A DNA stretch of 48,796 nucleotides from Thermoproteota archaeon (lineage in GTDB: Archaea; Thermoproteota; Thermoprotei; Gearchaeales; Gearchaeaceae). Below, piece by piece: positions 8,414-30,461 of this stretch; position 1 is the first letter of the stretch, and every line of letters starts with the position of its first letter. The notes under the pieces are model-generated. The model did no database searches. It had not been told where the DNA came from and saw nothing but the letters and a program-made list of their open reading frames with translations. The stretch is from contig JAVVGP010000002.1 in NCBI GenBank assembly GCA_032249055.1, forward strand, positions 1-48,796, written 5' to 3'. A program made the position numbers and the translations under genes.

Positions 8414-9537
8414 TTTAAAACAGCTTCTAGATATTTTTGAATGTAATTCTCAGGATCAAAAACTCTTCTTGCATATTCCTTTGCTTTCTTGCCCAGCATT
8501 TCAATTTTATTTCTATCGCTCATAAGCTTATGGATGGCTTCAGCCAAAGCATACGGATCATTTGGAGGAATAAGCATACCGAGATCCTTAACAACTTCGG
8601 TAAGTCCACCAGTATTACTTGCTATGACCGATTTGCCTAAATACATTGCTTCGATAGCTGTTTGGCCAAACATTTCTTCATATGTAGAAGGAACGACTAC
8701 TATTGAACTTCTAGTTATTAGTTTAACTAACTCTTCAGTGGTTTGAGGACCAACATAAACTACTTGATTTTCTAGTCTATAAAATTTTATTAGATTACTA
8801 GGGTAATCTTTATTAGGTGAAGGCCCGCAAATAATTGCTCGGTAAATGATACCTTTATCTTTGAGAATACTTAAAGCCTTTATCAGCACATCTTCTCCTT
8901 TCCCTGCCATCATTCTTCCGTATAGTAAAATGTAATTGTCATCATTATTTGAATTGTTTAAAGGAATTTGATTTAAATTATCAAATAAAACAGGATTATA
9001 AATTATATGCCAATTTAACCTTCTTATAAATTCTCTAAATCTCGTTAACATGTAATAAGTTGTAACTATATGTGTTATTTTTTTATCAATTTTCGCAATC
9101 ATTCTACTAATATGAAAGCTTAACCAAAGAAGTATTCCAACCAAACTTCTTCTTAAATATGGTTCTAAAGTTTTAAAGAATCCTTTATAAATAGATGTTC
9201 CTCCTCCAACACTACATAAATCATAAGTATGGTGATACCAAACGATTCTTTTCTTAAGCAATTTAGCAAACAAATATACAAAAATATTAAATCCTTGCAT
9301 ATGAATTATATCATGATAAAATATAAGGAAACTTAATAATGCTATTGATGGTCTTCTTACAACTGTTATTTTTGGTTTTATTTCAATTACTTTATTTCCT
9401 GTTTGAGTTACAATGGTGACGGCATATCCTTTATTTATTAATAATTTCGCTAAATTATCAGTATGTCTTTCTACACCCCCTATGCTAGGGTAGTAAAAAT
9501 GTGAATAAATTAGAAATCTTAGATTCTTATTAAGCAT
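8410..9537 (-). CDS. GT4-family glycosyltransferase
   Basis: YYPSIGGVERHTDNLAKLLINKGYAVTIV at the N-terminus. EX7E-type EEMFGQTAIEAMYLGKSVIASNTGG in the C-terminal domain. Confidence 0.85.
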   Translation of the reverse strand: MLNKNLRFLIYSHFYYPSIGGVERHTDNLAKLLINKGYAVTIVTQTGNKVIEIKPKITVVRRPSIALLSFLIFYHDIIHMQGFNIFVYLFAKLLKKRIVWYHHTYDLCSVGGGTSIYKGFFKTLEPYLRRSLVGILLWLSFHISRMIAKIDKKITHIVTTYYMLTRFREFIRRLNWHIIYNPVLFDNLNQIPLNNSNNDDNYILLYGRMMAGKGEDVLIKALSILKDKGIIYRAIICGPSPNKDYPSNLIKFYRLENQVVYVGPQTTEELVKLITRSSIVVVPSTYEEMFGQTAIEAMYLGKSVIASNTGGLTEVVKDLGMLIPPNDPYALAEAIHKLMSDRNKIEMLGKKAKEYARRVFDPENYIQKYLEAVLK

Positions 9538-9666: not shown

Positions 9667-10395
9667 TTACACTTTCTTAGCTAATATAGCGAATCCATTT
9701 GAAAGTGAAGGTGAGAATGAAAGAACATTATTCATTATATTATAAAGTTTATTTATATATTTATTAGTAAGTTGTAAAGAATGCTTAATTGATGCCTGCT
9801 TAACTGGTATGAAATTATATAACTTCAAATGTTCCAAGAGAGCATGATATGTATATAATTTTATATGCCCACTAGCAATGTACTTCCTTGGTGATAATCC
9901 TATTACTGAATCACCCAATCTATATTCCCATGAAATTTCATACTGAATAGGAACTAAACCTAGCAATAAAAGAATTCTATTAAGCCAAGAAGCTAAATTT
10001 GGCGTAGAAATTAAAAAATATCCTCCTTTTTTTATTACTCTACTTGCTTCAGATAATAAATTATCTGGATTTGCTAAATGTTCAATAACTTCACAAGCTA
10101 TTCCTAAATCAAAATATTCATCAGGATATGGTATTTTATCATTGTTAAGATCTAATATTAACAATTCAATTATTTTAGGAATCTTTGACTTAACTTCTTC
10201 ATTAATATCTATTCCTACATAAATTGATGGTTTGAATAAATTAATTACTTTTTCAGCAAAATTTCCATAACCAATACCAAATTCGATAATCTTTTCAATT
10301 TTAATTTTCGTTAATTTTCTAAGTAAATTAAAGTTAACTTCATGAATTTCTTGTGATGAACCAGTTCTAGGTAAATATAACTTAAGATTGTTCAT
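9667..10395 (-). CDS. class I SAM-dependent methyltransferase
   Basis: IIEFGIGYGNFAEK (motif I), LGIACEVIEHLANP and IKKGGYFLISTPN. 14-nt overlap with the upstream GT4 gene. Confidence 0.75.
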   Translation of the reverse strand: MNNLKLYLPRTGSSQEIHEVNFNLLRKLTKIKIEKIIEFGIGYGNFAEKVINLFKPSIYVGIDINEEVKSKIPKIIELLILDLNNDKIPYPDEYFDLGIACEVIEHLANPDNLLSEASRVIKKGGYFLISTPNLASWLNRILLLLGLVPIQYEISWEYRLGDSVIGLSPRKYIASGHIKLYTYHALLEHLKLYNFIPVKQASIKHSLQLTNKYINKLYNIMNNVLSFSPSLSNGFAILAKKV

Positions 10396-11524
10396 TAATC
10401 TTAATAAATTGTTCAGCTATTTTTTCCCATGAAAATAGTTTGGCTCTTTTCAAGGCGTTTTCGGATTTTTCTTGGTATAGTTTTTCATCACTTAATAATT
10501 TAATAATCGCATTAGCGAATTTTTCATGATTTATTTGATCTATTAGAATTCCTGCATTTCCTATTACTTCAGGAATACTTGCCAGATTGAAAGCTACGAT
10601 TGGTTTACCCAAGGCCATTGCCTCTAAGAAAATTAATCCAAAGCCTTCAAGAACACTTGCTGAAGCGAAAATGTCGCAAGCAGCATAGTATTTAGGTAGC
10701 TCTTGATCGCTAACAAATCCTGTGAAAATAACATCCTTCTCTAGATTCAGTCTTTTTGTCAAATTAATTAAGTAATGTTTTAAAGGACCATCACCGACAA
10801 TTACAAGTTTTACATCATTGATCCGCGATTTTACCAATACAAAAGACTTTATAAGAAAATGAACCCCCTTATTTGGGTGCAGATTCCCAACAAACAATAT
10901 TTTTCTCTCATTGCCAAGTTTTTCATTAATATCTGAAGCATCAATGTCTCTGTTAAATTTTTCCAAATCTACACCTTCTGGAATAATCTTTATTTTTTTC
11001 TTCGATATTTTGAATAATTTTATGAACTGCTCAGCTGTGAATCTACTCGGTGCTACCCAATAGTCTGGCTTAGTTAATTTCCCATAAATATTTCCAAAAG
11101 GTACTGAGAGAGCATTTGTAAATTTCACAATAGGCTGTGCATGATGTAAAAGACCAATGCTTATAAAATTACCATTTATCAAGCTTAAAAACGGAAATGG
11201 CAAATTTATCAATAAGAAATCGGTATCCAGTAACTTTTTATTTAATGTAACATTTAAAGAAAAAGTTAAAAAATCCAGCTCAAATACTCCGCTTAGCTTT
11301 CCAAGTTTTCCTAAGATTGTTCTAAGATCCTTAAATCTGTAGATTTCTATACCGTTGAAGTTATGATAAGAGGTTCCGCCATTCCAATATGTAGTTATCA
11401 CTGTAACTTTATGACCTAATTTTTTAAAACCTTTGCATAAGCCTTCAACATGCCTTTCAATTCCTGTATAAACTCCCCGTTTAGGATATGGAAAAACAGG
11501 TGTTACAATTGTTATTCTTACCAT
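10382..11524 (-). CDS. GT4-family glycosyltransferase
   Basis: GIERHVEGLCKGFKKLGHKVTVIT; ILFVGNLHPNKGVHFLI; EGFGLIFLEAMALGKPIVAFN (EX7E). Confidence 0.85.
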   Translation of the reverse strand: MVRITIVTPVFPYPKRGVYTGIERHVEGLCKGFKKLGHKVTVITTYWNGGTSYHNFNGIEIYRFKDLRTILGKLGKLSGVFELDFLTFSLNVTLNKKLLDTDFLLINLPFPFLSLINGNFISIGLLHHAQPIVKFTNALSVPFGNIYGKLTKPDYWVAPSRFTAEQFIKLFKISKKKIKIIPEGVDLEKFNRDIDASDINEKLGNERKILFVGNLHPNKGVHFLIKSFVLVKSRINDVKLVIVGDGPLKHYLINLTKRLNLEKDVIFTGFVSDQELPKYYAACDIFASASVLEGFGLIFLEAMALGKPIVAFNLASIPEVIGNAGILIDQINHEKFANAIIKLLSDEKLYQEKSENALKRAKLFSWEKIAEQFIKINEQS

Positions 11525-12738
11525 TATTTTAGCAAGCTATTTATTAATCTTATCCACTGTTCCCCTATAACTTTCCAATCAAATTCTTTCTCAACCTTTT
11601 TTCGAGCATTTTCGCCAATTTTTTTGCGCAATTCTTTATTTTCGTACAATAACTTTATTTTATTAACGAAATCTTTTACATTTTTATCACAGAAAATAAT
11701 TTCTTCATAGTTTTTAAAAAGTCCATTCATTTCTGGCGTGTTTATTTTTATCAAAGGTTTACCGCAGGATAAGATTTCTAAATCTGACAATGAAAAATCA
11801 TAATATGTGCTTATAAACAAGCTTGCTTTATTAATAAATATCGGAAGCATATTCCTAGGCAATGTTTCTTGAAAGATTACATTTTTTAAATTCTTTAATT
11901 TAATTTCATAAGGTCCGGATCCTCTAATAATAAACTTAGCCTCTGGAAGCTCTTTTTCGCAAGTTTTTATGATATCATATAAAAGACTAGCTCCTTTCTC
12001 ATCTGTTAATCTTCCAAAAAAACCAATCAGAAAATTATTTTCAATGTGGTTATATGGCTTAAAAGTGTTCGTATCAACCCCTGCAGGAATTATTTCTATC
12101 TTTTCTTTTGGAATTCCATAACTGATCATTCCTCTTTTTATTAATATTGATTGTGCTCTAATCTTGGTAGCCAATTTACAAGCTAGTTTTGCAAAACTTA
12201 AATTAACCCCCCAACTAATCACGGATGGTTTTTTAGCAGAAAAGGGCGAATACCATGGATATGGATTGCCTTCAGAAAAGATTGTCTTTACTTTTAGTAA
12301 TCTTGCTACCAAAATTAGAATTACATTAGATTTATCACTTATTATTAATAATCTTAAATTTTTTTTATATTTAAGTAAATTTATGCTTACAATTAATGAG
12401 TAAAAAATTAGACTTCTAAAAAATCCAAATGCGATACTAAAAATACTCTTAAGCGGATAGTTTCTTACTGCAGGATAATAAATATATTCAATTAAAATAT
12501 CATTATATTGTACTCTATTAACATACCTATATAAAAATGGAGAGAAAATTATAATATGAAATTTATCCTTAATTGCTTCACTTATTTTAAGTAAAATTTC
12601 TTGAATTCCTCCTGGACGATTGGTAGGAATTTCAAGTGGACCAGGGTTTATTATTATTATTAAAGGCTTATAAAATGATTTAATCTTAAATGTTAATTTC
12701 ATAATTATCGCTTTATGTGATGGTAGAATTAATTGCAA
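11524..12738 (-). CDS. GT-B (GT4-like) glycosyltransferase
   Basis: GGIQEILLKISEAI ... IPAGVDTNTFKP ... IGFFGRLTDEKGASLL ... LEILSCGKPLI. The first ATG overlaps asnB by 26 nt. An alternative start at M13 (12702) would remove the overlap. Confidence 0.7.
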   Translation of the reverse strand: MQLILPSHKAIIMKLTFKIKSFYKPLIIIINPGPLEIPTNRPGGIQEILLKISEAIKDKFHIIIFSPFLYRYVNRVQYNDILIEYIYYPAVRNYPLKSIFSIAFGFFRSLIFYSLIVSINLLKYKKNLRLLIISDKSNVILILVARLLKVKTIFSEGNPYPWYSPFSAKKPSVISWGVNLSFAKLACKLATKIRAQSILIKRGMISYGIPKEKIEIIPAGVDTNTFKPYNHIENNFLIGFFGRLTDEKGASLLYDIIKTCEKELPEAKFIIRGSGPYEIKLKNLKNVIFQETLPRNMLPIFINKASLFISTYYDFSLSDLEILSCGKPLIKINTPEMNGLFKNYEEIIFCDKNVKDFVNKIKLLYENKELRKKIGENARKKVEKEFDWKVIGEQWIRLINSLLK

Positions 12739-14542
12739 ATGTTAATTTATACCAATTCAATATTAAAGCAATTGAAAATAATCTATTTGTATATTCATAA
12801 GATGGATAATATTCATAATATTTCTTTATTTCATTATAATTTAAATTTAATTCCTTCATTAAATAACTTAACTCATCTATTTTATTTATAAAATCTTTAT
12901 GATATTTCTTTAAAGATATGCTAAATCCAATTTTTTTTCTTAAAATTATATGTTTAGGTATTTTTAAATATTTAATTGCATATAATTTTAATAAATATTT
13001 ATCTATTCCATGATTTATTTTTACTTCATTTTTAAAGCTAAATATTTTTTGCATCAAAATATGATTTAAAAATGGTGCTCTTAGCTCCAATGAATTTTTC
13101 ATGCTAATTCTATCATCCTTATGCAAGAAATCATTCGGCAACACTTTCTTAATGGTAACATATGCGGCGCTTTTATATTCATCACCTTTTCTTAACATCT
13201 TTTCATATTCAATGAAAGGATCTTCGAAACTGTTTATAACTATATTTTTTAACTCTTCTTTACTGAAATGAGAAAGCCTTAGCAATCTTTTACCTGCGTT
13301 ATCCAATGAATAATATCTATATTTTTCATATCGCTTTAAGTCTTGAAATGTTCCTGCTAAATTTTTATTTAAATGGCTTCCTAAAGAAATTATAATTTTC
13401 CTAATGAACTTAGGCAAGCTAAACCATTTGCTAAGAATATCATTTATATTTATCCAAGGATATCCCCAGAACATTTCATCTCCTCCTTCTCCTGTTAAAG
13501 CAACTGTTACTTCCTTTTTTATTTCTCTGCATATATAAAACGTTGGAACAATTGAAGGGTCAGCTACAGGCTCATCTATTGCTAAAGTAATTTGATCAAA
13601 ATCTTTCATGAAATCTGTTTCTACATATATTGTTTTATGATCGCTTTTTATCAAATTCGCAACTTCTTCAGCAAATTTAACTTCTTCATCGCTACCAGTA
13701 ACGTGCATTGTTTTAAGCTTTGAATATTCTGAAGCAACCTTAGCTATAACGCTTGAATCTACACCTCCGCTTAGCAAAACTCCTAAGGGAACGTCGCTTA
13801 TCAAAGTATTCTTTACTATACTTTTTAAGTTTGCATCAAGAATCTTTAAGGCAGCATCCAAATCCATTTCATTATTTTCCTCAAAGTTCAAATCCCAATA
13901 AGAATTGAAAGTAATCTTTTTATCTTTTAAAGAATATAAAATGTAACTTGCGGGCTTTAATCTATAGACCTTTTTAATAAAACTTTCTTCTAAATGATTG
14001 TAAAAGAAAGCTAAATAACTTGCTATTGCATTAGGATTAATTTCAGGCTTTTCGATGCAATTGATAATAGCTCTTAGCTCAGAAGCAAATATGAAATTAC
14101 CATCAACAAAGGTATAATACAAAGGCTTCTCTCCAAATCTATCTCTTGCTATGAAAACAGTTTTTTCCTTTGAATCATATATTGCAAAAGCGAACATTCC
14201 TGTTATTTTATCTAGCATTTTCTCCTTTTCTTCTTCCCATAAATGGACTAATACTTCTGTATCTGTATTTGTATAAAATTTATGTCTTGATTTCAACTCG
14301 TTTCTTAATTCAATGAAATTATAAATTTCACCATTGAAGACAACCCAAACTGTTTCATCTTCATTATGAATGGGCTGGTCTCCGGTTTTCAAATCAATTA
14401 TACTCAGTCTTCTTACTCCTAAGCCAACATGATCATCGATGTAATATCCTTCGCTATCAGGCCCTCGATGAATCAAGCTATTGCACATTAATTTCAAAAG
14501 ATATTTATTAGGTTCTCCTATTATTCCGCAGATTCCGCACAT
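12713..14542 (-). CDS. asnB: asparagine synthase (glutamine-hydrolysing) family amidotransferase
   Basis: N-terminal nucleophile MCGICGI, GPDSEGYY and VFNGEIYN (Ntn glutaminase domain). SGGVDSS PP-loop in the synthetase domain. 609 aa. Confidence 0.9.
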   Translation of the reverse strand: MCGICGIIGEPNKYLLKLMCNSLIHRGPDSEGYYIDDHVGLGVRRLSIIDLKTGDQPIHNEDETVWVVFNGEIYNFIELRNELKSRHKFYTNTDTEVLVHLWEEEKEKMLDKITGMFAFAIYDSKEKTVFIARDRFGEKPLYYTFVDGNFIFASELRAIINCIEKPEINPNAIASYLAFFYNHLEESFIKKVYRLKPASYILYSLKDKKITFNSYWDLNFEENNEMDLDAALKILDANLKSIVKNTLISDVPLGVLLSGGVDSSVIAKVASEYSKLKTMHVTGSDEEVKFAEEVANLIKSDHKTIYVETDFMKDFDQITLAIDEPVADPSIVPTFYICREIKKEVTVALTGEGGDEMFWGYPWININDILSKWFSLPKFIRKIIISLGSHLNKNLAGTFQDLKRYEKYRYYSLDNAGKRLLRLSHFSKEELKNIVINSFEDPFIEYEKMLRKGDEYKSAAYVTIKKVLPNDFLHKDDRISMKNSLELRAPFLNHILMQKIFSFKNEVKINHGIDKYLLKLYAIKYLKIPKHIILRKKIGFSISLKKYHKDFINKIDELSYLMKELNLNYNEIKKYYEYYPSYEYTNRLFSIALILNWYKLTFAINSTIT

Positions 14543-14580
14543 TGTGTTATTTCTCTATTCATTTTGATCAATTTTAGTTA

Positions 14581-14658
14581 TATCTATTTAAAACAATAAG
14601 GCATAGATTGCCTGTATTTTATCTGAGGATGAGGACGGATTGGTGTTGTGCTCCTCAG
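14581..14658 (-). terminator. candidate terminator region: two hairpins followed by a T-run, downstream of the ATPase gene
   Basis: CTGAGGA(14623-14629)/TCCTCAG(14652-14658) forms a 7-bp stem. AGGCA(14599-14603)/TGCCT(14609-14613) forms a 5-bp stem, followed on the minus strand by TATTGTTTT. The region starts 12 nt after the stop at 14670. Confidence 0.25.
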
Positions 14659-14669
14659 CACTGTAGGTT

Positions 14670-15701
14670 TCATACTTTCATAAGTACACTCTTTATGGCT
14701 TCTCTGTGAAGGGGTGTTTGCCATGCGGCATATTTGCCTATGCCTAGCTCTAGGTCCTTTTCGGGAGGTGGTATGTCTATCCATAGGGACTGGATTCTGC
14801 TATACACGTCGCTTACCGCAAGGTTTATTTCAGCCAGCTTGTGCAATAGAGGCAATCTCTCCCTTGTGTAGAGAGTGTCAGGATCATCTAGCGCCTCTCT
14901 AAGCCAAGCCCGCCTTTCTTCTTTCATTGAGGTTACGAATCTTCTCAAAGCTTTAGCTTCAATTATTTCTGTTATTATATCATCCACGTTCCATTGCTTT
15001 CTATACAGATCCTGTAGCATGTAAGGATTTCCTCCTGTTAGCTTCCATGCTTCTTCAAGTGATGGCTTCGGACCTGGTATTTTCTGGTAGAGTTGCTCGA
15101 ATCCCTCTTTGTTCATGTTCCACATGGGTAATATATAAGCCCACCTGTGCCTGCCGATTTCGTAGCGAGTTAAGCCCTCGCTGGTTGCTACTAACACAAC
15201 CATTTTTTCGTAGTTATAGAATGGATGCTCTATCATGTTCAGCAGACCTTTGACATAAATTGCAGCTCTATTGAGTCCTATTGCTTGAAACACATCATCA
15301 GCTATTACGGCCACTTTCCTTTTTCTTCTCTTTAATACTTCGCGTACGAAATAGAATACTGCCCATGCTACTCTGCCCAAAGCATCCTCTGCCAGTGCTC
15401 TTTGGGCAAAGTCTAGAAACGCTCTTTTCACGTCTACTTCCTCTATCTCTGCTTCGAAGATTTTGTCTAGCGGATGTAGGTAGAAGACATCGTAGCCCAT
15501 CTCTTTAAGCATTGTTGTTGCTTGTAGAAGAAAGGCGGTCTTTCCACAACCCTCGGGCCCAAAGATTACTACTGGATTTCCGGTACCTTTATCAGCCCAT
15601 TCAGATACTTGACCAAGCGCTCTATCTCTATCTGTAAATTCAATTTGAAGATCATCAAAGCGTAGCCTTATTCTTTTCACGTTGCTACTCAAGGGTTGCA
15701 T
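14670..15701 (-). CDS. archaeal AAA ATPase (Arch_ATPase/PF01637, COG1672-like) with C-terminal helical/wHTH-like region; high-GC copy
   Basis: Walker A GPEGCGKT and Walker B VAVIADDVFQ. 343 aa, clearly homologous along its whole length to ORF 16679..17710. Visibly much more GC-rich than the rest of the window. Confidence 0.8.
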   Translation of the reverse strand: MQPLSSNVKRIRLRFDDLQIEFTDRDRALGQVSEWADKGTGNPVVIFGPEGCGKTAFLLQATTMLKEMGYDVFYLHPLDKIFEAEIEEVDVKRAFLDFAQRALAEDALGRVAWAVFYFVREVLKRRKRKVAVIADDVFQAIGLNRAAIYVKGLLNMIEHPFYNYEKMVVLVATSEGLTRYEIGRHRWAYILPMWNMNKEGFEQLYQKIPGPKPSLEEAWKLTGGNPYMLQDLYRKQWNVDDIITEIIEAKALRRFVTSMKEERRAWLREALDDPDTLYTRERLPLLHKLAEINLAVSDVYSRIQSLWIDIPPPEKDLELGIGKYAAWQTPLHREAIKSVLMKV

Positions 15702-15722
15702 TCTAATTTGTGCTGTGCATTA

Positions 15723-15736
15723 CTACTATTTTAGAG
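15723..15736 (-). promoter_or_regulatory. candidate TATA box for the high-GC ATPase gene
   Basis: The minus strand reads CTCTAAAATAGTAG, centred about 29 nt upstream of the ATG at 15701. This spacing fits a leaderless or short-leader archaeal promoter. Confidence 0.3.
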
Positions 15737-15773
15737 GTATCATGAATATAATTATGAATGGTATTTCTATTTT

Positions 15774-16211
15774 TCATATCTTTGCACATATTTTCCATCC
15801 CTTCTTGTACTTACGTATCTTTAACCTTTCTTTGACTTCCTCATATATTTTCCGCTTTTCCTTCCATATTCCATCATCATAAATTATTTTTCCTTCCTCA
15901 AATGCTTCTATGAGCTCATATTCAGCTGTTTTTATAGCATCAAAAAGTTCTTCTACTGTATATATCCTTGGATCCACTATTCCAAGGGATGGTAGCTCGG
16001 TATATGATATATCTTTATCCACAACTATTATGGCATCTATATCGCTACTTAACTTCCAATCTCCTCTAGCTCTAGAACCTATAACTACCACAGCTCTTAC
16101 ATTCGTAAGCTTTGATAACTGTTCTATATAATTTGCTAAATACTTTATTGCTGGTTTTCCATTCCAGATTTTGCCTATATCTATTCCAAGTATTTTCTTA
16201 GCGTATCCCAT
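15774..16211 (-). CDS. minimal nucleotidyltransferase (MNT, pol-beta superfamily)
   Basis: VVVIGSRARGDWKLSSDIDAIIVV matches GSxxxGx(5-7)SDxD. It overlaps the upstream HEPN gene by 31 nt. Confidence 0.75.
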   Translation of the reverse strand: MGYAKKILGIDIGKIWNGKPAIKYLANYIEQLSKLTNVRAVVVIGSRARGDWKLSSDIDAIIVVDKDISYTELPSLGIVDPRIYTVEELFDAIKTAEYELIEAFEEGKIIYDDGIWKEKRKIYEEVKERLKIRKYKKGWKICAKI

Positions 16212-16597
16212 AATTCTCTCATAACTTCAACACATTCTTTTGCAGTATTTAAATCATATTTTATCATAGCCATTCTTAATGCATCAGGATATCTAGAAGC
16301 ATGGTAGTGTATGGTTAACTTAGATAATTTATTTAATAAAATTGGTTCTTCAATACCTACTTCATGTGCTAGTTCCATTAGATCATTTATTGGTATGAAC
16401 ATGCCTCGTTTAATCAAGATAGTCTTAAGTAACTTTTCACAGGATTGTTGAGCATGAAAGCATGCTTCTTTAAAAGAATTTCTACTAAGTGCAGAAATAG
16501 CTTCTTCGTAGTCACTCTTGGCATATTGGAACCATTCCTTCCAATCATCTGAAGCTAACCTTGGCATAAATTTAAGGTTGAAAGTAAAGGATGCCAT
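16181..16597 (-). CDS. HEPN domain protein (partner of the MNT)
   Basis: 138-aa all-helical protein with YEEAISALSRNSFKEACFHAQQSCEKLLK and HYHASRYPDA, typical of COG2250-type HEPN proteins. It sits immediately upstream of an MNT. Confidence 0.7.
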   Translation of the reverse strand: MASFTFNLKFMPRLASDDWKEWFQYAKSDYEEAISALSRNSFKEACFHAQQSCEKLLKTILIKRGMFIPINDLMELAHEVGIEEPILLNKLSKLTIHYHASRYPDALRMAMIKYDLNTAKECVEVMRELWDTLRKYLE

Positions 16598-16678
16598 TTT
16601 CTATTATAAATAATGACATCATAACTATATCTTTGTCCATGAAATTCATTTGATTTCTGTGAATAAGAATTAATTCTA

Positions 16679-17710
16679 TCACATCAAAACTTTCTTAATA
16701 CTTTCCTTATATAATGGTATTTGCCAAGCAACATGCTTTCCTATACCTAATTCCAGATCTCTTTCTAGTGGAGGCACATCTATCCATATTCGCTGATCTC
16801 TTTCTGGAACTGCATCGATAATTAAGTTTAGTTCGACTAACTTGTTAAGTAGAGGTATTCTATCTCTGGTTAATAATGAATCTGGGTCTATAATAGCTTC
16901 TGAAAGCCATTTCTTTTCATCATCACTAAGAGAAGATATGAAGGTGTCTAGCTTCTTAGATTCTATAAGGTTTCTAATAACTAACTCTATATCCCATTTA
17001 AACTCATAAAGTTGTGCAAGTATCCTTGGATTGCCACCAGTAATTTTCCAGATGTTCTCAAATGATGGTTTTTGGCCTGGTATTTTTTCATATAGTTCTT
17101 CAAAACTGCTCTTAGACATGTTCCACATAGGTTTCAATAGAGCCCATAAGTGTCTACCAATTTTACCCCTCGTTATTACCTCACTTGTAGCTATGATTGA
17201 AACAATTGCTTCATAGCTTGCTGGAGGATATTCAATTAAATTCAGCAAACTCTTTACATAGATCTCAGCCTTATCAAGTCCAATAGCTTGGAAAACCTCA
17301 TCAATAAGTATAGCTACACGCTTCTTTCTCCATCTGTTTATAAGATCCTTAAGAATGTCTAGAGCAAGGGTAGCTAATTTAACTTGAGCAACACCAATAA
17401 CCTCTGAGGTAGCTTCAGCAAGTTTATTAACCGCTTCACTTGTATCGGTATTAGCAATAAAGTCTTTATGTAATGGATCAATATAAATAGCTTCAAAACC
17501 GAGTTCTCGTAAGATAAAAGTAGCTTGTTTTAACCATGCGGTTTTGCCACAACCTTCAGGTCCGAAGACAACTATTGGAAATCTGGTGCCTTTCTCAGCA
17601 AGTTCTTCTACTTGTTTTAAAGCTCTTTCTCTATCAACGAACTCAATTTCTAATCCGGGTGCAAATGAGAGCTTAATCTTATTGGTATCCATAATATTCT
17701 TACTTAACAT
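16679..17710 (-). CDS. archaeal AAA ATPase (Arch_ATPase/PF01637-like); lower-GC paralogue
   Basis: Walker A GPEGCGKT and Walker B VAILIDEVFQ. 343 aa, the same length as ORF 14670..15701, and alignable end to end (e.g. IEFVDRERAL/IEFTDRDRAL, MWNM, ITGGNP/LTGGNP, DLELGIGK). Confidence 0.8.
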   Translation of the reverse strand: MLSKNIMDTNKIKLSFAPGLEIEFVDRERALKQVEELAEKGTRFPIVVFGPEGCGKTAWLKQATFILRELGFEAIYIDPLHKDFIANTDTSEAVNKLAEATSEVIGVAQVKLATLALDILKDLINRWRKKRVAILIDEVFQAIGLDKAEIYVKSLLNLIEYPPASYEAIVSIIATSEVITRGKIGRHLWALLKPMWNMSKSSFEELYEKIPGQKPSFENIWKITGGNPRILAQLYEFKWDIELVIRNLIESKKLDTFISSLSDDEKKWLSEAIIDPDSLLTRDRIPLLNKLVELNLIIDAVPERDQRIWIDVPPLERDLELGIGKHVAWQIPLYKESIKKVLM

Positions 17711-17759
17711 GAAGTTAATTATTACAAAAAGAAAGCATCTATCTTGCTGTAACCTTTAA

Positions 17760-18119
17760 TTAAGCTCTTGCTATGAAAGTTCTCGTAGGCTTAACTTCTC
17801 CTGTCACAGGATCCACAGCTAATCCTAAGGCTTCAAGTGCAAAGACCCCAAGTAATGGCTCATCAACATCGAAAACTCTAATTGGAATTAAATCACCTCT
17901 TCCCATAATTTCTAGATAAGCTGTCGTATACCATGCCTCAACCATCCTTCCATCAGCTAATGTGACCATAGTCTTAAATTCCAATCTCAAACCTAACGCT
18001 TCAGCTAGCCATTTAGGGATACATGAATATGTTGCACCAGTATCAATAAGCATCTTAACATCTCTAATCTTTTGCTTAAGCGGATCTCCCAACTTAACTG
18101 TAATGTAAACGTGACCCAT
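17760..18119 (-). CDS. retropepsin-like (clan AA) aspartic protease
   Basis: 119 aa with MLIDTGATYSCIP (the D-T/S-G-A catalytic motif), a size typical of homodimeric retropepsin-like domains. Only 14 nt downstream of the GT4 gene stop. Confidence 0.65.
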   Translation of the reverse strand: MGHVYITVKLGDPLKQKIRDVKMLIDTGATYSCIPKWLAEALGLRLEFKTMVTLADGRMVEAWYTTAYLEIMGRGDLIPIRVFDVDEPLLGVFALEALGLAVDPVTGEVKPTRTFIARA

Positions 18120-18133
18120 TATTTTGTCATTAC

Positions 18134-19273
18134 TTATTTATATTGCATTACTTCTTCATATAATTTGTAATATTCTTCTACCATTCTTTCATAGCTATAA
18201 TTTAAAGATTGCCTATGATTATGCTCACCCATTTCTATCATTAGTTTAGGATTTTCTACAATTTCAATTATTCTTTCACTCATTTCTTTGTAATTTTCAT
18301 GATTTACAATGAATCCTCCTTCTTTTCCTATGAGCTCCTCAGCTATACCTACAGGTGTGCTTATAATCGGTAATTTAAAGTAAGCTGCTTCTACCAAAGC
18401 ATGTGCGAAGTTATCATATCTCGAGCTCCATATAAATAAATTTGAATTGCAATAAACTTTCCATAATTCTTCGCCGCTTAGCCATCCTTTGAAGATTACT
18501 TTATCTTGCAAACCTAAATCTTTGCATAATTTAATTAACCTTTCTTTATATCCTTTTTCTTCCTTTCCGTATCTGCTAGGAATCACATCTCCCACTATTA
18601 TATAACGAAGCTTATTATTTCTTTTATAAGCTTCATAAAAAGCTCTGATTGCCATTTCTAAATTGTTTTTATAAGTCAATCTGCTTACAGTAAGTAAATT
18701 TATTGTTTCTTTATCTTCTTTTCTTATATTAATATTTGGAAATTCTATACCGTTTGGTATTATTTTTATTTTATTTTCTGGAATTCCAAAGCTAATTAAT
18801 TCTTTTGCTTCACTTTTTGATGTTGCAACGATTTTCTTGGCAACTCTTAAAGAAAACTTCATTGTTATTGCATCGTAGATTATATTTGGCAATCTTGATT
18901 TCAAATCTAAATTCAAGAATTCATAGCCTCTAACAGTTCCATGTGTTGTAATTATTAAAGGTACTTTTCTAAGGAAAGAAGATATAGCCCCAGCATCTGT
19001 CTGGAAATTCCTATATCCATGAACATGAATTATGCTGCAATCTTTTTTTAAAGAATCAAGTAGCATTTTCAAAGATAGCTTGTAATGGCCCGAGCCAAAA
19101 AATGGTTTATATTCGATTATCTTACTTCTCTTTAATTTTACAGTTCCTTTTTTAAAGGTTAAGATTATTGAACTAATACCTTTCTTTTCTAAACCTTTAG
19201 TTAAAAGATACGCCTGTTTTGAAGGACCTGTGAATTCACTTCCAAATTCGCCAATCAATCTTAAAATTATCAA
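18134..19273 (-). CDS. GT4-family glycosyltransferase
   Basis: GPSKQAYLLTKGLEKKGISSIILT; IPNGIEFPN; LLTVSRLTYKNNLEMAIRAF; C-terminal LVEAAYFKLPIISTPVG. Confidence 0.8.
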   Translation of the reverse strand: MIILRLIGEFGSEFTGPSKQAYLLTKGLEKKGISSIILTFKKGTVKLKRSKIIEYKPFFGSGHYKLSLKMLLDSLKKDCSIIHVHGYRNFQTDAGAISSFLRKVPLIITTHGTVRGYEFLNLDLKSRLPNIIYDAITMKFSLRVAKKIVATSKSEAKELISFGIPENKIKIIPNGIEFPNINIRKEDKETINLLTVSRLTYKNNLEMAIRAFYEAYKRNNKLRYIIVGDVIPSRYGKEEKGYKERLIKLCKDLGLQDKVIFKGWLSGEELWKVYCNSNLFIWSSRYDNFAHALVEAAYFKLPIISTPVGIAEELIGKEGGFIVNHENYKEMSERIIEIVENPKLMIEMGEHNHRQSLNYSYERMVEEYYKLYEEVMQYK

Positions 19274-20472
19274 TTCAGTTTCAAATCGAACTCTCTTAGA
19301 TCTTTAGCATTACCTTCAACTATTGCTTCCATAACTTTGAAATCCTGATAAATTATATTTTTCCAATCTAATTTTTTAGCAGTGTTTCTCATAGAGCTGA
19401 AATCTTTATTTTCAACTTCTTTCAAAGCGAGTTCTAAGTCTTCAGCGATCATATTTGCATTTGAAGGATCTCTAAAATACATTGCTACGTTGCCCAAAGA
19501 TCTTGAAATACCTTCAGTTTTCGTAACCAAAAAAGGCTTGCACATGCTTAAATATTCTCTTATTCTTGTATGAAGATTTGCGCGGTTCATTCTTGTTACA
19601 GGTAATAAAGGTAATGCGCATAATGATGCTGAAGCTATATAGTTTGGCAATTCTTCATATTCTATCCATCCTGTTAGTTTAACTTCTTTAGCTAAACCAT
19701 TTTCATTTATTAAAGATCTTAAATAATTCATATAATTTGGCTTACCTTCTCCTACAATTAATAGAGAAGCTTTTTCTTTTAGTTTATTAAAAGCTTTTAC
19801 CAATAAATGAACTCCATCATAAAGTCCCATGTCACCATGATAAAAAATTACTTTATCATTCAGTTCAAGCTTACTTTTTATAATATCAGGATTTGTTTTA
19901 TCAGGATTGAAATGCTCTGTATCAACACCATTTGGTATTACTGCAACTCTTTCTTTGTTAAGACCATATTCATTCCAATAATCTCTGCCTAAATCTGTTT
20001 CAACGTTTGCATAATCTACATTTCTAGCTATTTTCTTCTCCATTCTTTTTAAAAAAGGTACCACCAAATTTTTAAAAGGCATATCAAATTGAACGTAAAG
20101 GTCGCTTATAAAGTCGGTTAGCTCTGCATAAATTGGAATCTTTATTTCTTTTTTGTTTGATATTGCTGCATAAGTTGGCAAGATATTAATAGTTCTAATT
20201 ATATCAAATTTTTCTTGTTTACATAGTTCTTTTATTTTCTTTCTCATTTCCCTCATTATTTTTATTCTTGAAAAAATGTTGAATTGCTTAAATTCTAAAT
20301 TTATGTATTCATAATTAGCTAAGTTATCTTCTGGCAAATCTGATTTAGGACAAATAACTGTTATATCGTTTCCTAATTCTGAAAGATACTTAACGCTATA
20401 ATTTGGTCTTCCTGCTCTTTTCTTAGATGGCAGAGACTGTTCGCAAACCAGCAAAATTTTAAGTTTATCCAC
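19270..20472 (-). CDS. GT-B (GT4-like) glycosyltransferase
   Basis: IPNGVDTEHFNP; VIFYHGDMGLYDGVHLLVKAFNKL; LLIVGEG. GTG start codon. 4-nt overlap with the downstream GT4 gene. Confidence 0.7.
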   Translation of the reverse strand: MDKLKILLVCEQSLPSKKRAGRPNYSVKYLSELGNDITVICPKSDLPEDNLANYEYINLEFKQFNIFSRIKIMREMRKKIKELCKQEKFDIIRTINILPTYAAISNKKEIKIPIYAELTDFISDLYVQFDMPFKNLVVPFLKRMEKKIARNVDYANVETDLGRDYWNEYGLNKERVAVIPNGVDTEHFNPDKTNPDIIKSKLELNDKVIFYHGDMGLYDGVHLLVKAFNKLKEKASLLIVGEGKPNYMNYLRSLINENGLAKEVKLTGWIEYEELPNYIASASLCALPLLPVTRMNRANLHTRIREYLSMCKPFLVTKTEGISRSLGNVAMYFRDPSNANMIAEDLELALKEVENKDFSSMRNTAKKLDWKNIIYQDFKVMEAIVEGNAKDLREFDLKLN

Positions 20473-20597
20473 TGAAAAAGTTAAAAATTACATTAATTAT
20501 TCTGCAAAATAATTTTAGAATATGAATATTTTTTTATTATCTTAATTTTAAATAACAAAATCGCAATGAAATTTAGTTTTAAGAATAATCTTATCGA

Positions 20598-22415
20598 TTA
20601 TTTAGAAATTCTAATTAAATATGAGTCCCTGTTATTAAAAAGTATATCATTATTGTTTTTGTATATCAAAAAATTTAAATAATTTGAAAACGATGCTGGA
20701 GATATATCGTTAGCCCATCTTTCAATAGTATAGGTACTTATAGCTATATAAGAATTGCTCATATTCATATCAAGCGATAATTTATAATAAGCTATTGAAG
20801 AAGGGAGAGTTCCATTAAAATGATAAGGCAAAATACTTGGGTCTATTGTTCCAAAAATTTTTGTATGAGATTTCATATAAAGTATGAATTTAGCTAAGGA
20901 AAATGATTGCTGAGTAGTGTACATTATTCCTTGTGATGGATAACTATATTTTGCAAAATAAGGAGAGTCATCTGTTAATAAATTAGATGAAAAGAAAGCA
21001 AAAACAATAAGAAGCAATAGCAAAGCAAACGTGGTTTTCCTCTTGAAAACAATAAAGGATCCAGCTAAAAAAGATACAGGTACTAATATGTAAAGTATTG
21101 CTATAGTTTGTTCCACTGCAGTACCAGAAAAAAGAACAATAAAATTATATGCTACAATAGTTAAGGCAGTCAAAGCAAGAAAATAACTTTTAAAGTTTCT
21201 TCCGTTTATAAAAGCATATAATAAACCTACTGTTCCTAGATATATCACTATAGAATACCATGCATGGGATAAAGTATAGAATGTTAAAGAATCTAAATTT
21301 GGATCAAAATAAGGAGTTGAAGGACTTTCTAGTTTCAAACTATATGCTGGATATATTAGACGGGGTAAAATCTCGGAAAAAAAAGGAAAAGCATGGAAAA
21401 ACAAATAGAAAATGATCAATCCAAAATAAATTATTGAATATGTTCTCAGGTACTTATTATAAGTAATTAAAACAAATGTCAAAACTAACATTACGATCGC
21501 AAAAATAATTGCTGCTGTAGGATGGAATAAAAACATGGTAATTGAACTTAAGACTAAAATTATTATGAATTTCCTATTTTCTTCAATCCTTATTAATGAG
21601 TAAAAAGAAATTATGAAAAAAATGAATGAAAAGGGATGCAGAGTATAGGAATTGAAAGATGTATAGCTATAAATCAAGCTAAAAACTATTGTTGATATCA
21701 ATGAAACTCTTATGTTATTTGAAATTCTATAAACAATAATATAAGCAAAAAATAAAGAAACACTAACTATTAGCGAATTGATTAACATATACATGAATGT
21801 TACTTTACCAAATGGGATTAGCCAAATTATTGAATTAAGAATATAATATAATGGGAAGTATGTATAACCACCTAAGTAATCAGGGACATGTGCTAAATTA
21901 TAAACCCTTACACTATTAAAGTAATGGTAATAAGGATCCCACCATGGTGGAACGCCGTTAATTAAATACAAGCTTATTCTTTGTACGAAATGTAGAATAA
22001 CTAGCTGTACTAATATAAGCAGTGCTATTTTCTTTGAAATTTTAAAAAATATAGCTTGAAAAGTAAGCAAGGCCATCGCTACTGTAATGAATATGTAAAA
22101 CTCTATTACTCTGTAAACATTGCTGATATAAATCGAGTAAATTGTTGCTGAGATAAAGAATGAAAAAATGATAGTTAAGGCAAAATTAAGTTTATCATTC
22201 TTAATATTAAATTCATTAAAGTTTGGTTTTTGAATTAAATATAAATATGTAGCTATTCCAAGAACAACGCCTAAAAAGTTCAGGGTTATAAAGTATCCTG
22301 TTACTGTAAATTTTATAAAAAGAGAAATAAGTAGAAAGATAAGTAGTATAATTGATAGAGGAAATAATATTTTAATAGTTCTTAAATTTATTATTTTTTC
22401 AAAAATAATACTCAT
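20598..22415 (-). CDS. polytopic membrane protein, possible GT-C-type glycosyltransferase or polymerase
   Basis: 605 aa and almost entirely hydrophobic helices. It has an early loop motif VPPWWDPYYHYFNSVRV and a ~110-aa C-terminal soluble tail. Confidence 0.4.
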   Translation of the reverse strand: MSIIFEKIINLRTIKILFPLSIILLIFLLISLFIKFTVTGYFITLNFLGVVLGIATYLYLIQKPNFNEFNIKNDKLNFALTIIFSFFISATIYSIYISNVYRVIEFYIFITVAMALLTFQAIFFKISKKIALLILVQLVILHFVQRISLYLINGVPPWWDPYYHYFNSVRVYNLAHVPDYLGGYTYFPLYYILNSIIWLIPFGKVTFMYMLINSLIVSVSLFFAYIIVYRISNNIRVSLISTIVFSLIYSYTSFNSYTLHPFSFIFFIISFYSLIRIEENRKFIIILVLSSITMFLFHPTAAIIFAIVMLVLTFVLITYNKYLRTYSIIYFGLIIFYLFFHAFPFFSEILPRLIYPAYSLKLESPSTPYFDPNLDSLTFYTLSHAWYSIVIYLGTVGLLYAFINGRNFKSYFLALTALTIVAYNFIVLFSGTAVEQTIAILYILVPVSFLAGSFIVFKRKTTFALLLLLIVFAFFSSNLLTDDSPYFAKYSYPSQGIMYTTQQSFSLAKFILYMKSHTKIFGTIDPSILPYHFNGTLPSSIAYYKLSLDMNMSNSYIAISTYTIERWANDISPASFSNYLNFLIYKNNNDILFNNRDSYLIRISK

Positions 22416-22479
22416 TTAAAATGACAAAATCTTATAATTTTGATAATTTTTAATTTTTAAATTATAGATATTTTTAAAC

Positions 22480-23760
22480 TCATTCAGGAGTTGGAATAAC
22501 TTTAAAATTCAAAGACCTAAGATTTTCAATAGTTCTCTCTAAATATTTCTTTGCCATATAGCTTTCCTCTAGACTTTCAGCATCAAGATAAACTTTTGGA
22601 TAGTAAATTATATATACATCAAGATTTTGAAATGAATCTACAAATTTCTCAATATCCTTGATTAGACTTGTTATTATATAAGCCGTATTGATATTCCCAC
22701 TTTCCATATTTTTATCATCAAATAAAACTTTGGTTTCAAAATAATTTTGATTGTTCATATCAAATATTTTAAACAAAATCTCATTTTTAAACAAATACAA
22801 AATTTCTTTTAACTTTTCTGATGGTATAATGTCTTTTATTTTATATATATCTTCCAGCTTTATCTTATAATAATCGATGATATACTTTAAAACTTTTTCA
22901 AGGATGCTTGATTTATTTCCTATTTCTTGTTTTATAATTAATTTATCTTTTCCGTAAATTTCAATTATTAAAGGAACTTCCCTTGAGACATAGTTCATTA
23001 TAAGACTTAAAAAATAACTGCCAAGCTCATCTTTCGTTATTTCGCCTGGAAATCTTGTATCGAAAAGAATATAAAGAGTCCCTCCCTTTTCTTCATGGAA
23101 TTCTTTTACAAATAATTTTGTATGTCTTGCTGTAGCTTTCCAATCTATCCTTCTTATTGTTTCTCCTTGTACATATTCCCTACTGTAAGCATATTCGGTT
23201 CCTAATCCTATTTTTGGTTGTGGAAACTCTCCTATACCATAATATCCCATTTTAGCAAGCAAACCTATCGCTTCAATTATTTTTAAATAAATTAATGGAT
23301 AAACTGTAAGTTCAATTTTTATGGGAATTTTATATAGTCCTTCGAAGAATGAAAACTTGCTTTTAAACCTAGATTTTATTCCATCAAGCTTGTAAATTCC
23401 AGAATGATTTGGTTTAAGAAGTAAAGTTAGTTCTTTCTTTCCCTTTTTTAATTCCTCTTGGGAAAAACTTAACCATGATTCCTTTTCTATTTTTAAATCG
23501 ATTTCACTTTCAATTACAATATTATATGATATTACGTTTTTCCTGAAAATACTTGCTTGAATATGGTTTGGCTCTACTTTAATTTTTTTAAATTTTTTAT
23601 ATATTGTTTTAAAACTAAGGAAATCATAGAGAAGTAGTGAAGCCAAGCTTATCGAAATAAACATGATAATCCAATCGAAGAAAAAAATACCAAGTAATAA
23701 TGCTACTAAAGAAGAAAGTGATATCTTAATCCCTTTGGAGGTTAACTTAATATGTTTCAA
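22480..23760 (-). CDS. DUF58 domain protein (MoxR partner), N-terminally membrane anchored
   Basis: IRRIDWKATARHTKLFVKEFHEEKGGTLYILFD is the classic DUF58 signature. The TTG start is embedded in a TTGA overlap with the moxR stop. Confidence 0.8.
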   Translation of the reverse strand: MKHIKLTSKGIKISLSSLVALLLGIFFFDWIIMFISISLASLLLYDFLSFKTIYKKFKKIKVEPNHIQASIFRKNVISYNIVIESEIDLKIEKESWLSFSQEELKKGKKELTLLLKPNHSGIYKLDGIKSRFKSKFSFFEGLYKIPIKIELTVYPLIYLKIIEAIGLLAKMGYYGIGEFPQPKIGLGTEYAYSREYVQGETIRRIDWKATARHTKLFVKEFHEEKGGTLYILFDTRFPGEITKDELGSYFLSLIMNYVSREVPLIIEIYGKDKLIIKQEIGNKSSILEKVLKYIIDYYKIKLEDIYKIKDIIPSEKLKEILYLFKNEILFKIFDMNNQNYFETKVLFDDKNMESGNINTAYIITSLIKDIEKFVDSFQNLDVYIIYYPKVYLDAESLEESYMAKKYLERTIENLRSLNFKVIPTPE

Positions 23761-27511: not shown

Positions 27512-27753
27512 ACTAAAAACAATGCTTTAATTATGTAAATAACTACTATATAAACAAAAATGATAAATAGCGATAAGCCCAAATAATCAAAATACTTTCT
27601 TCTAGGAGAATAAATTTCAGAAACTAAAAAATACACAATAATATAAGCAAGTAAATATACTTCAATCAAGTTTACATTATAGGATATAAATAATATATCT
27701 AGAAATACAATGATTAATACTAATGTAAGTAAGTATTTTGTATGTTTATTCAA
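27508..27753 (-). CDS. small integral membrane protein (81 aa, about 3 TM)
   Basis: Hydrophobic throughout. TTG start in a TTGA overlap with the upstream gene and a 4-nt overlap downstream. Confidence 0.5.
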   Translation of the reverse strand: MNKHTKYLLTLVLIIVFLDILFISYNVNLIEVYLLAYIIVYFLVSEIYSPRRKYFDYLGLSLFIIFVYIVVIYIIKALFLV

Positions 27754-29047: not shown

Positions 29048-29048
29048 C

Positions 29049-30062: not shown

Positions 30063-30188
30063 TTGAATAACTTAATTTTTTTAAGAATGAGATAATGTGT
30101 CTATTTATTTAAAGTTGGAATATTTAATTCTAACCATAAGATTAATTAGCATCTTTCTTTGCTTTTGCCAGTCTTTGTGGATATTCAC

Positions 30189-30419: not shown

Positions 30420-30461
30420 AAGTTTAATTTCTATTAAAGCATCTGGTTTTCGTTCTGCTTT

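Follow-up and report, generated by a model that had tools for sequence, protein, structure and literature searches.

We analyzed a 48,796-nucleotide stretch of DNA from an uncultured, low-GC hot-spring Thermoproteota archaeon of the family Gearchaeaceae (assembly GCA_032249055.1, contig JAVVGP010000002.1, positions 1 to 48,796), referred to below as the window, and focused on a block of five genes, the island, lying between an asnB-type asparagine synthase gene and a GT4 glycosyltransferase gene. The window forms one co-directional cluster in which all gene-like open reading frames (ORFs) of at least 110 amino acids lie on the minus strand. Surface-glycan biosynthesis dominates it: at least 12 GT4/GT2 glycosyltransferase genes are accompanied by genes for methyltransferases, an epimerase/dehydratase, a carbamoyltransferase, asnB, a SIS-domain protein, a hexapeptide acetyltransferase, and large membrane proteins. 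The five minus-strand genes between asnB and the GT4 gene have no glycan-related function. Read 5' to 3', they encode a retropepsin-like protease, a PF01637-type ATPase (ATPase B), a HEPN protein, a minimal nucleotidyltransferase (MNT), and a second PF01637-type ATPase (ATPase A) (Table 1). An initial annotation of this DNA had named and placed these five genes correctly. The left end that it gave to the block, 14584, belongs to a 66-amino acid ORF that we judged to be spurious, because a Pfam search found no family match for it and it overlaps the end of a conserved gene, out of frame, in GC-rich sequence. Comparison with a sister lineage puts the true borders at ~14543 and ~18133–18152.

Table 1. 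Coordinates of the five-gene island, its genes, and its flanks in the window
Feature	Coordinates	Strand	Basis
Island, lineage-specific, asnB start codon to GT4 stop codon	14543..18133	-	Sister-lineage comparison, GC
asnB-type asparagine synthase, flank	12713-14542	-	Pfam Asn_synthase and GATase domains
ATPase A, 343 amino acids	14670-15701	-	PF01637, 223.9 bits
MNT, COG1708-type, predicted antitoxin	15774-16211	-	Pfam Polbeta 33.2 bits, NTP_transf_2 32.5 bits
HEPN-T, PF05168/COG2250-type, predicted toxin	16181-16597	-	Pfam HEPN 71 bits
ATPase B, 343 amino acids	16679-17710	-	PF01637 (ATPase_2), 239.1 bits
Retropepsin-like clan AA aspartic protease, 119 amino acids	17760-18119	-	Asp_protease_2 38.7 bits, gag-asp_proteas 36.1 bits
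GT4 glycosyltransferase, flank	18134-19273	-	Pfam Glycos_transf_1, Glyco_transf_4
66-amino acid ORF, judged spurious	14584-14784	-	Out of frame over ATPase A 3' end

The GC content of the block is 37.2% compared with 28.7% for the rest of the window, the maximum among all segments of 3,536 bp (mean 29.2%, standard deviation (SD) 2.2%), so the compositional step first noticed by eye is borne out by computation. Gene by gene, GC content is 43.6% for ATPase A, 39.7% for the protease, 35.5% for ATPase B, 33.8% for MNT, and 32.6% for HEPN; the estimates by eye had put the last two in the mid-to-high 30s, too high for genes in the low 30s percent. GC content at first codon positions (GC1) is high in all five genes, and the ATPase family exceeds the local background GC in several low-GC hosts. 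At third codon positions (GC3), ATPase A reaches 0.41 against a mean of 0.20 (SD 0.033) for 36 host genes, a deviation of +6.3 SD; the protease lies at +2.5 SD, and ATPase B (0.26), HEPN, and MNT lie at +1.7–1.8 SD. The strongest tetranucleotide deviation in the window likewise falls in the ATPase A region (z = 3.2). Only ATPase A is a strong outlier at synonymous positions.

A sister lineage (contigs L087–L091), recovered by an asnB protein search and contig look-ups, encodes an asnB product 87% identical in amino acid sequence to that of the window and has the same backbone, consisting of carbamoyltransferase, small ORF, GT4(400), GT4(377), and, further along, asnB and a glycosyltransferase gene. 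All five island genes are missing from this backbone. Homology between the window and L087 breaks at ~18152 and returns exactly at 14542; instead of the island, the L087 junction carries a 2.6-kb stretch with a gene (23% GC) for a 613-amino acid multi-pass membrane protein. Since the sister lineage has the same backbone with a different gene, and homology is broken at gene ends, the block is specific to this lineage and represents an insertion or a replacement at a junction whose content differs from one lineage to the next. The synteny comparison called for in the initial annotation thus found the backbone kept and the island genes absent, and the view that the island is foreign to the glycan cluster holds for composition, for function, and for its absence from the sister lineage. 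Deviant composition and absence from related genomes are marks of a genomic island; those of an integrative element (an integrase, a tRNA or att site, flanking direct repeats) were not found. The 48.8-kb window has no tRNA gene, no integrase or recombinase occurs among its ORFs, and the only direct and inverted repeats at the borders are short, chance-level ones, in agreement with the first inspection, which had seen none of these features. A 13-nucleotide repeat pair with a single mismatch, one member by each border (14647 and 18331), was dismissed, since such a pair is expected by chance in 4.3 kb. Both borders coincide with gene ends inside an operon-like cluster. Searches for relatives of the ATPase found none beyond the P-loop level in IMG/VR and none among PLSDB plasmids, INPHARED phages, and PHROGs.

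Protein searches and contig look-ups also gave nine distinct related contigs from hot-spring metagenomes and the metagenome-assembled genome (MAG) "Thermoproteota archaeon PSS.bin.16" (GCA_032249315.1). These have the block at the same site and are ~91–95% identical to the window in DNA over flanks and island. Identity is 88–97% inside the island compared with 92–95% in the flanks, and synonymous divergence (dS) of the island, 0.09–0.43, is comparable with that of the flanks, 0.21–0.37. Because identity and dS are similar in island and flanks, the block was at this site in the common ancestor and was inherited with the cluster. It predates strains now about 5–9% diverged in DNA and has since been inherited vertically, with recombination between strains. 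Against the closest contig, L008, blocks of 99–100% identity alternate with blocks of 90–93% (window 12735–20473 aligned to L008 3226–10965), and identical blocks occur at 19873–19474, 17073–16674, 16273–15674 (the whole MNT gene), 15073–14874, and 14473–14274. This mosaic indicates frequent homologous recombination among co-existing strains.

Five open reading frames occur together in the window only. There the protease, ATPase B, MNT, and ATPase A are intact and HEPN is open with His71 replaced by Asn. The same four genes are intact in L008, in which HEPN has a nonsense codon and a His-to-Leu change. ATPase B is frameshifted in L005 and the other four genes are intact. L004 and L006 share a deletion (18149 to 17682) that takes out the protease; HEPN, MNT, and ATPase A are intact in both, and ATPase B is intact in L004 and carries a stop in L006. 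Four contigs (L001, L002, L003, and L092) keep an intact protease and ATPase A together with an 81-amino acid stub of ATPase B and have HEPN and MNT deleted; a clean deletion common to L001-type contigs, window 17467 to 15818, takes out the whole of HEPN, almost the whole of MNT, and most of ATPase B. The 1.4-kb contig L007 holds an intact ATPase A and the 3' end of MNT, its other three genes lying beyond the contig. ATPase A is the sole component intact in all nine related contigs. These data show that the parts have been lost independently and that the block is eroding one module at a time.

The ratio of nonsynonymous to synonymous divergence (dN/dS), calculated pairwise against the relatives, is 0.05–0.18 for the flanking glycan genes (asnB 0.07–0.10; GT4 0.05–0.11). 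The corresponding values are 0.13–0.19 for ATPase B, 0.16–0.22 for ATPase A, 0.20–0.25 for HEPN, 0.13–0.38 for MNT, and 0.28–0.44 for the protease. The island genes are under purifying selection that is more relaxed than in the flanks. As a separate observation, the MAG PSS.bin.16 holds two versions of the locus, the deletion form on L001/L009 (JAVVGB010000001.1) and the full block on L008 (JAVVGB010000010.1); because both are in the same MAG, this bin probably mixes two strains.

The HEPN and MNT genes lie on the same strand with a 31-bp overlap, and their matches to Pfam HEPN, Polbeta, and NTP_transf_2 all exceed the gathering cut-offs, as in two-gene HEPN-MNT modules of the COG2250/COG1708 class. 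Relatives in the PDB are 1ufb, 1wol, and 1o3u for HEPN and 2rff and Cmr1-MntA for MNT. Because family matches and relatives of HEPN begin at residue 11–19, Met11 (16567) is probably its true start. MNT has an intact GS...DxD motif (GSRARGDWKLSSDID) and, aligned with family members and PDB 2rff, fits the pattern G[SG]-x(9-12)-DxD (GSRARGDWKLSSDIDAIIVV). The MNT gene is intact wherever it is present among the relatives and is 100% identical between the window and L008. Pairs of the COG2250/COG1708 class have been described as a thermophile hallmark and as mobile two-gene modules that insert inside operons; in the Thermus lysine operon, for example, such a module is found in HB8 and not in HB27 (PMC2701414). 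The island pair is like this class (candidate PADLOC system PDC-M05) in its overlapping small PF05168 HEPN and GS..DxD MNT genes, and its HEPN-then-MNT order is the usual one for the subtype in the loci examined.

Among HEPN/MNT classes, a mechanism has been demonstrated only for type VII HepT/MntA, whose RNase toxin HepT is inactivated by MntA adenylylation/AMPylation (PMC7641770); a second report likewise describes neutralization of the toxin by MNT-catalyzed AMPylation (PMC11586414). The island pair shares the two-domain logic of the type VII systems of Shewanella, Aphanizomenon, and Legionella, which combine a DUF86 HEPN with MntA. However, its HEPN matches PF05168 only, not PF01934, and has no Rx4H; its gene order is reversed, with HEPN first; and its MNT scores 21.9 bits with the NCBIfam MntA_antitoxin model against a cut-off of 60, which places the pair outside type VII.

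The position of the Rx4-6H motif in the window HEPN reads RYPDAL and contains no His, a loss that is common in HEPN-T proteins. For such proteins, a catalytic role has been proposed for an alternative conserved His located on the N-terminal side of the motif (PMC3710099), and the additional lack of this residue here is unusual. This position is Asn71 in the window (codon AAT, 16385–16387, minus strand), and the equivalent codon is CAT (His) in L004, L005, and L006 and CTT (Leu) in L008. Among 139 aligned family representatives (50%-identity clusters), 131 (94%) have the alternative His and none has Asn. The residue is as conserved as Arg102, Tyr103, Pro104, Gln51, Glu54, and Lys55, all six of which the window HEPN keeps. 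With neither His present and Asn71 in place of a near-invariant residue, the window toxin is probably inactive. The L008 nonsense codon falls at the position of window Tyr30; a frameshift at ~16580 in L008 was also considered and was rejected because the indel falls in the non-conserved N-terminal extension. Among close relatives the toxin has been damaged independently at least three times, by His-to-Asn change, by His-to-Leu change with a nonsense codon, and by deletion of the pair. Loss of the toxin before the antitoxin is the order of decay expected of an addiction module. These natural alleles support the prediction that the alternative His is the functional residue of HEPN-T proteins, and they provide ready-made allele pairs.

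A second HEPN toxin gene, a true MNT-HepT fusion of 273 amino acids (Polbeta plus PF01934), lies elsewhere in the glycan cluster and is intact in L008 (2370–3191). The window retains a decayed remnant of it (30195–30794, minus strand), in which an in-frame stop at codon 111 leaves a 110-amino acid MNT-only ORF (30462–30794) and homology ends before RNILVH. The L001 version (5212–6033) has RNMLVN in place of RNILVH, and L087, from the sister lineage, has no MNT-HepT gene. The fusion shows the same trend of decay as the island HEPN.

Both ATPases cover the whole PF01637 profile (cut-off 33.2 bits), with an intact Walker A motif, GPEGCGKT, and a Walker B motif, IADDV or LIDEV (ILIDEV in ATPase B). 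The two had been read as paralogues bracketing the HEPN-MNT pair. They are 50% identical to each other, and each has a closer relative outside the lineage: the nearest to ATPase A are 61% identical and come from Desulfurococcales MAGs (L010 and L011) in which the ATPase gene is immediately preceded by a retropepsin gene, and the nearest to ATPase B is 63% identical and comes from a Nezhaarchaeales MAG (L041). The closest relatives of ATPase A sit in Desulfurococcales and Thermoproteales. Given their mutual identity, their closer relatives in other orders, and their unlike GC3, the two ATPases belong to different subclades and are not a duplicated pair, which argues against a fixed arrangement.

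The two proteins resemble PABY2304 (PDB 2qen), of the COG1672 type, in their full-length PF01637 match, Walker A and B motifs, ORC/Cdc6/DnaA-like core, and helical C-terminal part. Unlike known PF01637 ATPases, they have no DUF234/PD-(D/E)XK C-terminal domain and carry a conserved C-terminal motif specific to their subfamily, WIDxPPxEKDLELGIGKxxAWQxPLxxE (ATPase A residues ~297–334, window ~14700–14813). This motif is invariant or nearly so over 12 ATPase sequences that are otherwise ~50–60% identical, and may be an interaction or processing motif; in the ATPase A model the predicted local distance difference test score (pLDDT) is below 50 at residues 297–302 and 308–312. The AlphaFold model of the ATPase has a pLDDT of 78 and a predicted template modeling score (pTM) of 0.53. 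In a fold search its best resemblance was to DnaA, ORC/Cdc6, and 2qen, with low TM-scores (~0.3), and weaker matches were to Avs3, plant NLRs, and SAMD9 (TM ~0.25–0.34) and to MalT; because the model is multidomain, the scores are low and the search supports the AAA+/ORC-like class only. PDB sequence searches with single sequences and profiles gave P-loop-level matches only. Models of STAND NTPases scored below threshold (nSTAND_NTPase5, 24.1 and 19.2 bits against a cut-off of 34; NB-ARC, 15.6 against 23.5), and the proteins, at only 343 amino acids with no repeat or effector domain, fall outside that class. An exact-sequence look-up of ATPase A returned no record, and literature searches on PF01637/COG1672 function yielded nothing usable. 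Because of their low dN/dS (0.13–0.22), intact Walker motifs, and AAA+/ORC-like fold, the ATPases, which are under purifying selection, look functional, most likely as stand-alone NTP-dependent switches. From the model we infer an ORC/Cdc6-like switch with a helical, possibly DNA-binding, C-terminal domain.

In Pyrobaculum and Vulcanisaeta this subfamily, like PF01637 archaeal ATPases in general, is represented by numerous paralogues, by tandem arrays, and by pseudogene debris. Tandem arrays of at least four copies, many of them fragmented, occur in Vulcanisaeta distributa (L029), Vulcanisaeta sp. JCM 14467 (L032), L013, and L081, and the two Vulcanisaeta loci each have at least 12 ATPase ORF matches. 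Fragmented arrays of this kind are a birth-and-death pattern.

The protease carries the motif LIDTGAT, conserved in its relatives, and exceeds the cut-offs of two clan AA retropepsin models (Asp_protease_2, 24.3; gag-asp_proteas, 28.2). Its score for the TIGR03698 subfamily, 50.7 bits, falls short of the cut-off of 57.35. With a single DTG motif the enzyme would presumably be active as a homodimer. Its ATG lies 14 nucleotides past the GT4 stop, a gap that leaves no room for a promoter of its own. Small archaeal retropepsins (TIGR03698, Saci_1895-type) are likewise ~100–120 amino acids long with a single DTG motif and occur in variable, conflict-rich neighborhoods, and in Sulfolobales they are accessory genes of type III CRISPR cassettes (PMC3973734). 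Unlike the Saci_1895-type proteins, the island protease has no CRISPR-cas genes alongside and reads DTGA, not DTGF.

When loci were sampled by protease instead, six distinct contexts were obtained, with 49–76% identity. An adjacent PF01637 gene was found in one of them, in Infirmifilum lucidum, where it is convergent and split; in five of the six, genes of toxin-antitoxin (TA) systems or mobile elements lie close by (PIN, MazE, an MNT-type gene, AbiEii, or TnpB). A retropepsin gene does lie immediately upstream, in the same orientation, of each of the three most A-like ATPases (L010, L011, and L012). On that basis we considered whether protease and ATPase A had formed an original cassette that was later split by insertion of ATPase B, HEPN, and MNT. 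This idea was rejected as unsupported, because the window protease is ~40–45% identical to the L010–L012-type proteases (a rough figure read off the alignment) and 71–76% identical to proteases in other contexts, and because its GC3 is unlike that of ATPase A. In the Desulfurococcales MAG locus L010, the retropepsin directly upstream of the ATPase closest to A (3077–3364) has AGTAI in place of the catalytic DTG motif and is truncated to 95 amino acids, and another copy, 1.4 kb further upstream, is intact.

A scan of species-representative genomes for the ATPase subfamily returned 79 loci, many of which are tandem arrays that include pseudogene debris. The loci come from Pyrobaculum, Vulcanisaeta, Thermoproteus, Caldivirga, Ignisphaera, Desulfurococcales, Thermofilales, Nezhaarchaeales, and others, and all of their ORFs were searched with hidden Markov models (HMMs) bootstrapped from the window proteins. 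Partner genes (HEPN, MNT, or protease) occur at ~0.03–0.12 per kb within 500 bp of an ATPase, at ~0.01–0.08 per kb (with one zero bin) at 0.5–2 kb, and at no more than 0.017 per kb beyond 3 kb. Nine of 17 MNT matches fall in the nearest 12% of the flank space (p = 5e-5); p is 0.07 for HEPN and 0.04 for the protease. The island does consist of conflict-type or accessory families, and its HEPN, MNT, and protease families are enriched near subfamily ATPases in other Thermoproteota. A fixed five-gene arrangement, which the initial annotation had raised as a possible composite module, did not emerge from the same comparison. A partner family lies within 700 bp of 14 of 97 full-length outside ATPases and is lacking there in the other 83 (86%), and partner order and strand vary among the outside loci. 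All four families occur together within about 6–12 kb in two unrelated MAG loci, L073 and L031, in other orders. The full arrangement is confined to this lineage and to this single site, where its parts have been lost independently; the initial annotation had itself named failure to co-occur elsewhere, with conservation in the lineage, as evidence against its proposal, and for the arrangement this is essentially what we found. PADLOC-DB v2 gave no system match for the island and nothing for HEPN or the protease; MNT matched PDC-S09, PDC-M05A, and PDC-M70A weakly, and the ATPases matched mad8 marginally (E ~0.003–0.005). These results indicate that the families share variable neighborhoods and sometimes form local pairs, and that they do not amount to a conserved multi-gene system.

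Taken together, the block has probably built up from independent accessory modules, gained by horizontal transfer in two or more events at a variable junction of a glycan cluster that undergoes recombination. Three or four modules can be proposed: the retropepsin-like gene, ATPase B, the HEPN-T/MNT pair, and ATPase A, the last of which would have arrived latest or come from a donor of higher GC. Entry and exchange would have proceeded by illegitimate or flank-homologous recombination and not by site-specific integration. By analogy with studied HEPN/MNT modules, HEPN would be an RNase-type toxin restrained by the co-translated MNT through covalent nucleotidylylation. An addictive TA pair of this kind would have helped the block to persist, any benefit from the ATPases may also have stabilized it for a time, and inactivation of the toxin would leave the HEPN-MNT pair free to decay. 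The ATPases would be ORC/Cdc6/DnaA-like members of a Thermoproteota birth-and-death family. An eye-catching five-gene "defense island" thus resolves into a patchwork of independent modules at a recombination-prone junction, a pattern expected of HEPN-MNT modules and paralogous archaeal ATPases in thermophiles. The island combines known kinds of event, insertion of a HEPN-MNT module in an operon-like cluster and expansion of paralogous archaeal ATPases. It also resembles the variable cassettes of surface-polysaccharide clusters, with their conserved backbone, strain-variable genes or cassettes, and mosaic identity; unlike those cassettes, its cargo consists of TA and ATPase genes and is not glycan-related.

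Several observations weigh against this interpretation. The figure of at least two acquisitions rests mainly on GC3, for which the three short genes (119–145 codons) give noisy estimates, and the inactivity of the N71 HEPN protein is deduced from conservation only. All five genes have dN/dS well below 1, so that none of them can be dismissed as simple neutral junk across the lineage. Close to the ATPases (within ~1–2 kb), HEPN, MNT, and protease genes are denser than further out, in a census whose loci were chosen by ATPase and whose HMMs were bootstrapped from the very loci searched. Some outside loci are operon-like, such as L062, in which MNT overlaps the ATPase by 17 nucleotides, and L024, with a 35-bp gap. 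Some functional coupling between an ATPase and a HEPN-MNT pair may therefore exist.

One composite defense or conflict system, in which the ATPases act as sensors or switches, HEPN as effector, MNT as regulator, and the protease as activator or processing enzyme, is nevertheless unlikely. Such a system would account for co-localization of the families around the ATPase subfamily beyond what distance-random placement would give, for the near-operonic ATPase/HEPN/MNT layouts in L024, L062, L050, and L085, for the retropepsin genes upstream of A-like ATPases, and for the two loci that hold all four families. It would also suit the resemblance of the ATPase fold to STAND/NLR/Avs NTPases, the small retropepsins that accompany type III CRISPR cassettes in Sulfolobales (PMC3973734), and purifying selection on all five genes. 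However, close relatives have lost components independently, with ATPase A persisting alone with asnB; outside the lineage, most ATPases have no partner nearby, and partners vary in order and strand. The nearest relatives of the protease are mostly away from such ATPases, ATPases A and B belong to different subclades with unlike GC3, no PADLOC system matches, and in the one genome where all five ORFs are open, the near-invariant His of the predicted effector has been lost.

A looser relationship, in which PF01637 ATPases, HEPN-T/MNT pairs, and retropepsins make up a mix-and-match, NTPase-centered conflict toolkit of hyperthermophilic Thermoproteota, is a long shot. If it existed, sensing or switching would fall to the ATPase, RNase effector activity to HEPN, covalent regulation of HEPN to MNT, and activation to the protease. 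Placement in a glycan cluster would then be selected, with receptor variation and abortive infection inherited as one unit, and the piecemeal losses would represent turnover of a real system and not proof of independence. The recurring, non-obligate proximity of PF01637 genes to HEPN-MNT pairs and retropepsins is a countable hypothesis on a large archaeal ATPase family annotated without function.

Integrative elements commonly carry TA pairs and AAA+ ATPases, and the block could in principle be the remnant of an integrated mobile element (a provirus, plasmid, or other) that has lost its integrase and ends. Its foreign composition and its absence from the sister lineage would be in keeping with such an origin. 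We regard this as very unlikely, because the locus has no integrase, tRNA, or flanking repeats, its borders fall exactly at gene ends inside an operon-like cluster, the searched virus, plasmid, and phage collections hold no ATPase relatives beyond the P-loop level, and the components are unlike in GC3. It is highly improbable that the five are native ancestral genes lost by the sister lineage, with a GC excess due to amino acid composition, as the uniformly high GC1, the modest GC3 of ATPase B, HEPN, and MNT, and the GC-rich ATPases of low-GC hosts would allow, since the GC3 of ATPase A is a synonymous-site signal, none of the families is linked to glycan synthesis, the sister junction carries a different gene and not an empty scar, and the closest outside relatives of both ATPases are in other orders.

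The GT4–asnB junction is not the sole variable site of the cluster, as methyltransferases, membrane proteins, and a 10-kb segment also differ between strains. A stretch of ~9.7 kb (20474–30148) encoding a 605-amino acid membrane protein, a DUF58 protein, a MoxR-type AAA_3 ATPase, a DUF4350 protein, a 629-amino acid protein, and two DUF1616 proteins is absent from L008, where window position 30149 joins ~20473; the MoxR-DUF58 module is thus a strain-variable cassette inside the glycan cluster. Two ORFs of 113 amino acids on the minus strand (30833–31174 and 40744–41085), 91% identical (103/113) and without a Pfam match, bracket the ~10-kb segment, which holds a GT4 gene and genes for four proteins of 469–747 amino acids with no or marginal Pfam matches (DUF6541, Dpy19-like). 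The related contigs examined, L001 and L008, have one matching copy of the 113-amino acid ORF and do not have the segment. GC skew is positive in the segment, in contrast to the remainder of the minus-strand cluster, and no other part of the window has so deviant a dinucleotide signature (z up to 3.1); the segment looks like another inserted cassette. Four GT4 genes matched the GT4-conflict model PF20706 (cut-off 26 bits): those at 3627–4766, 8410–9537, and 39585–40733 scored 28–35 bits and that at 10382–11524 scored 22.6 bits, under the cut-off. Generic GT4 models outscored PF20706 by far in all four.

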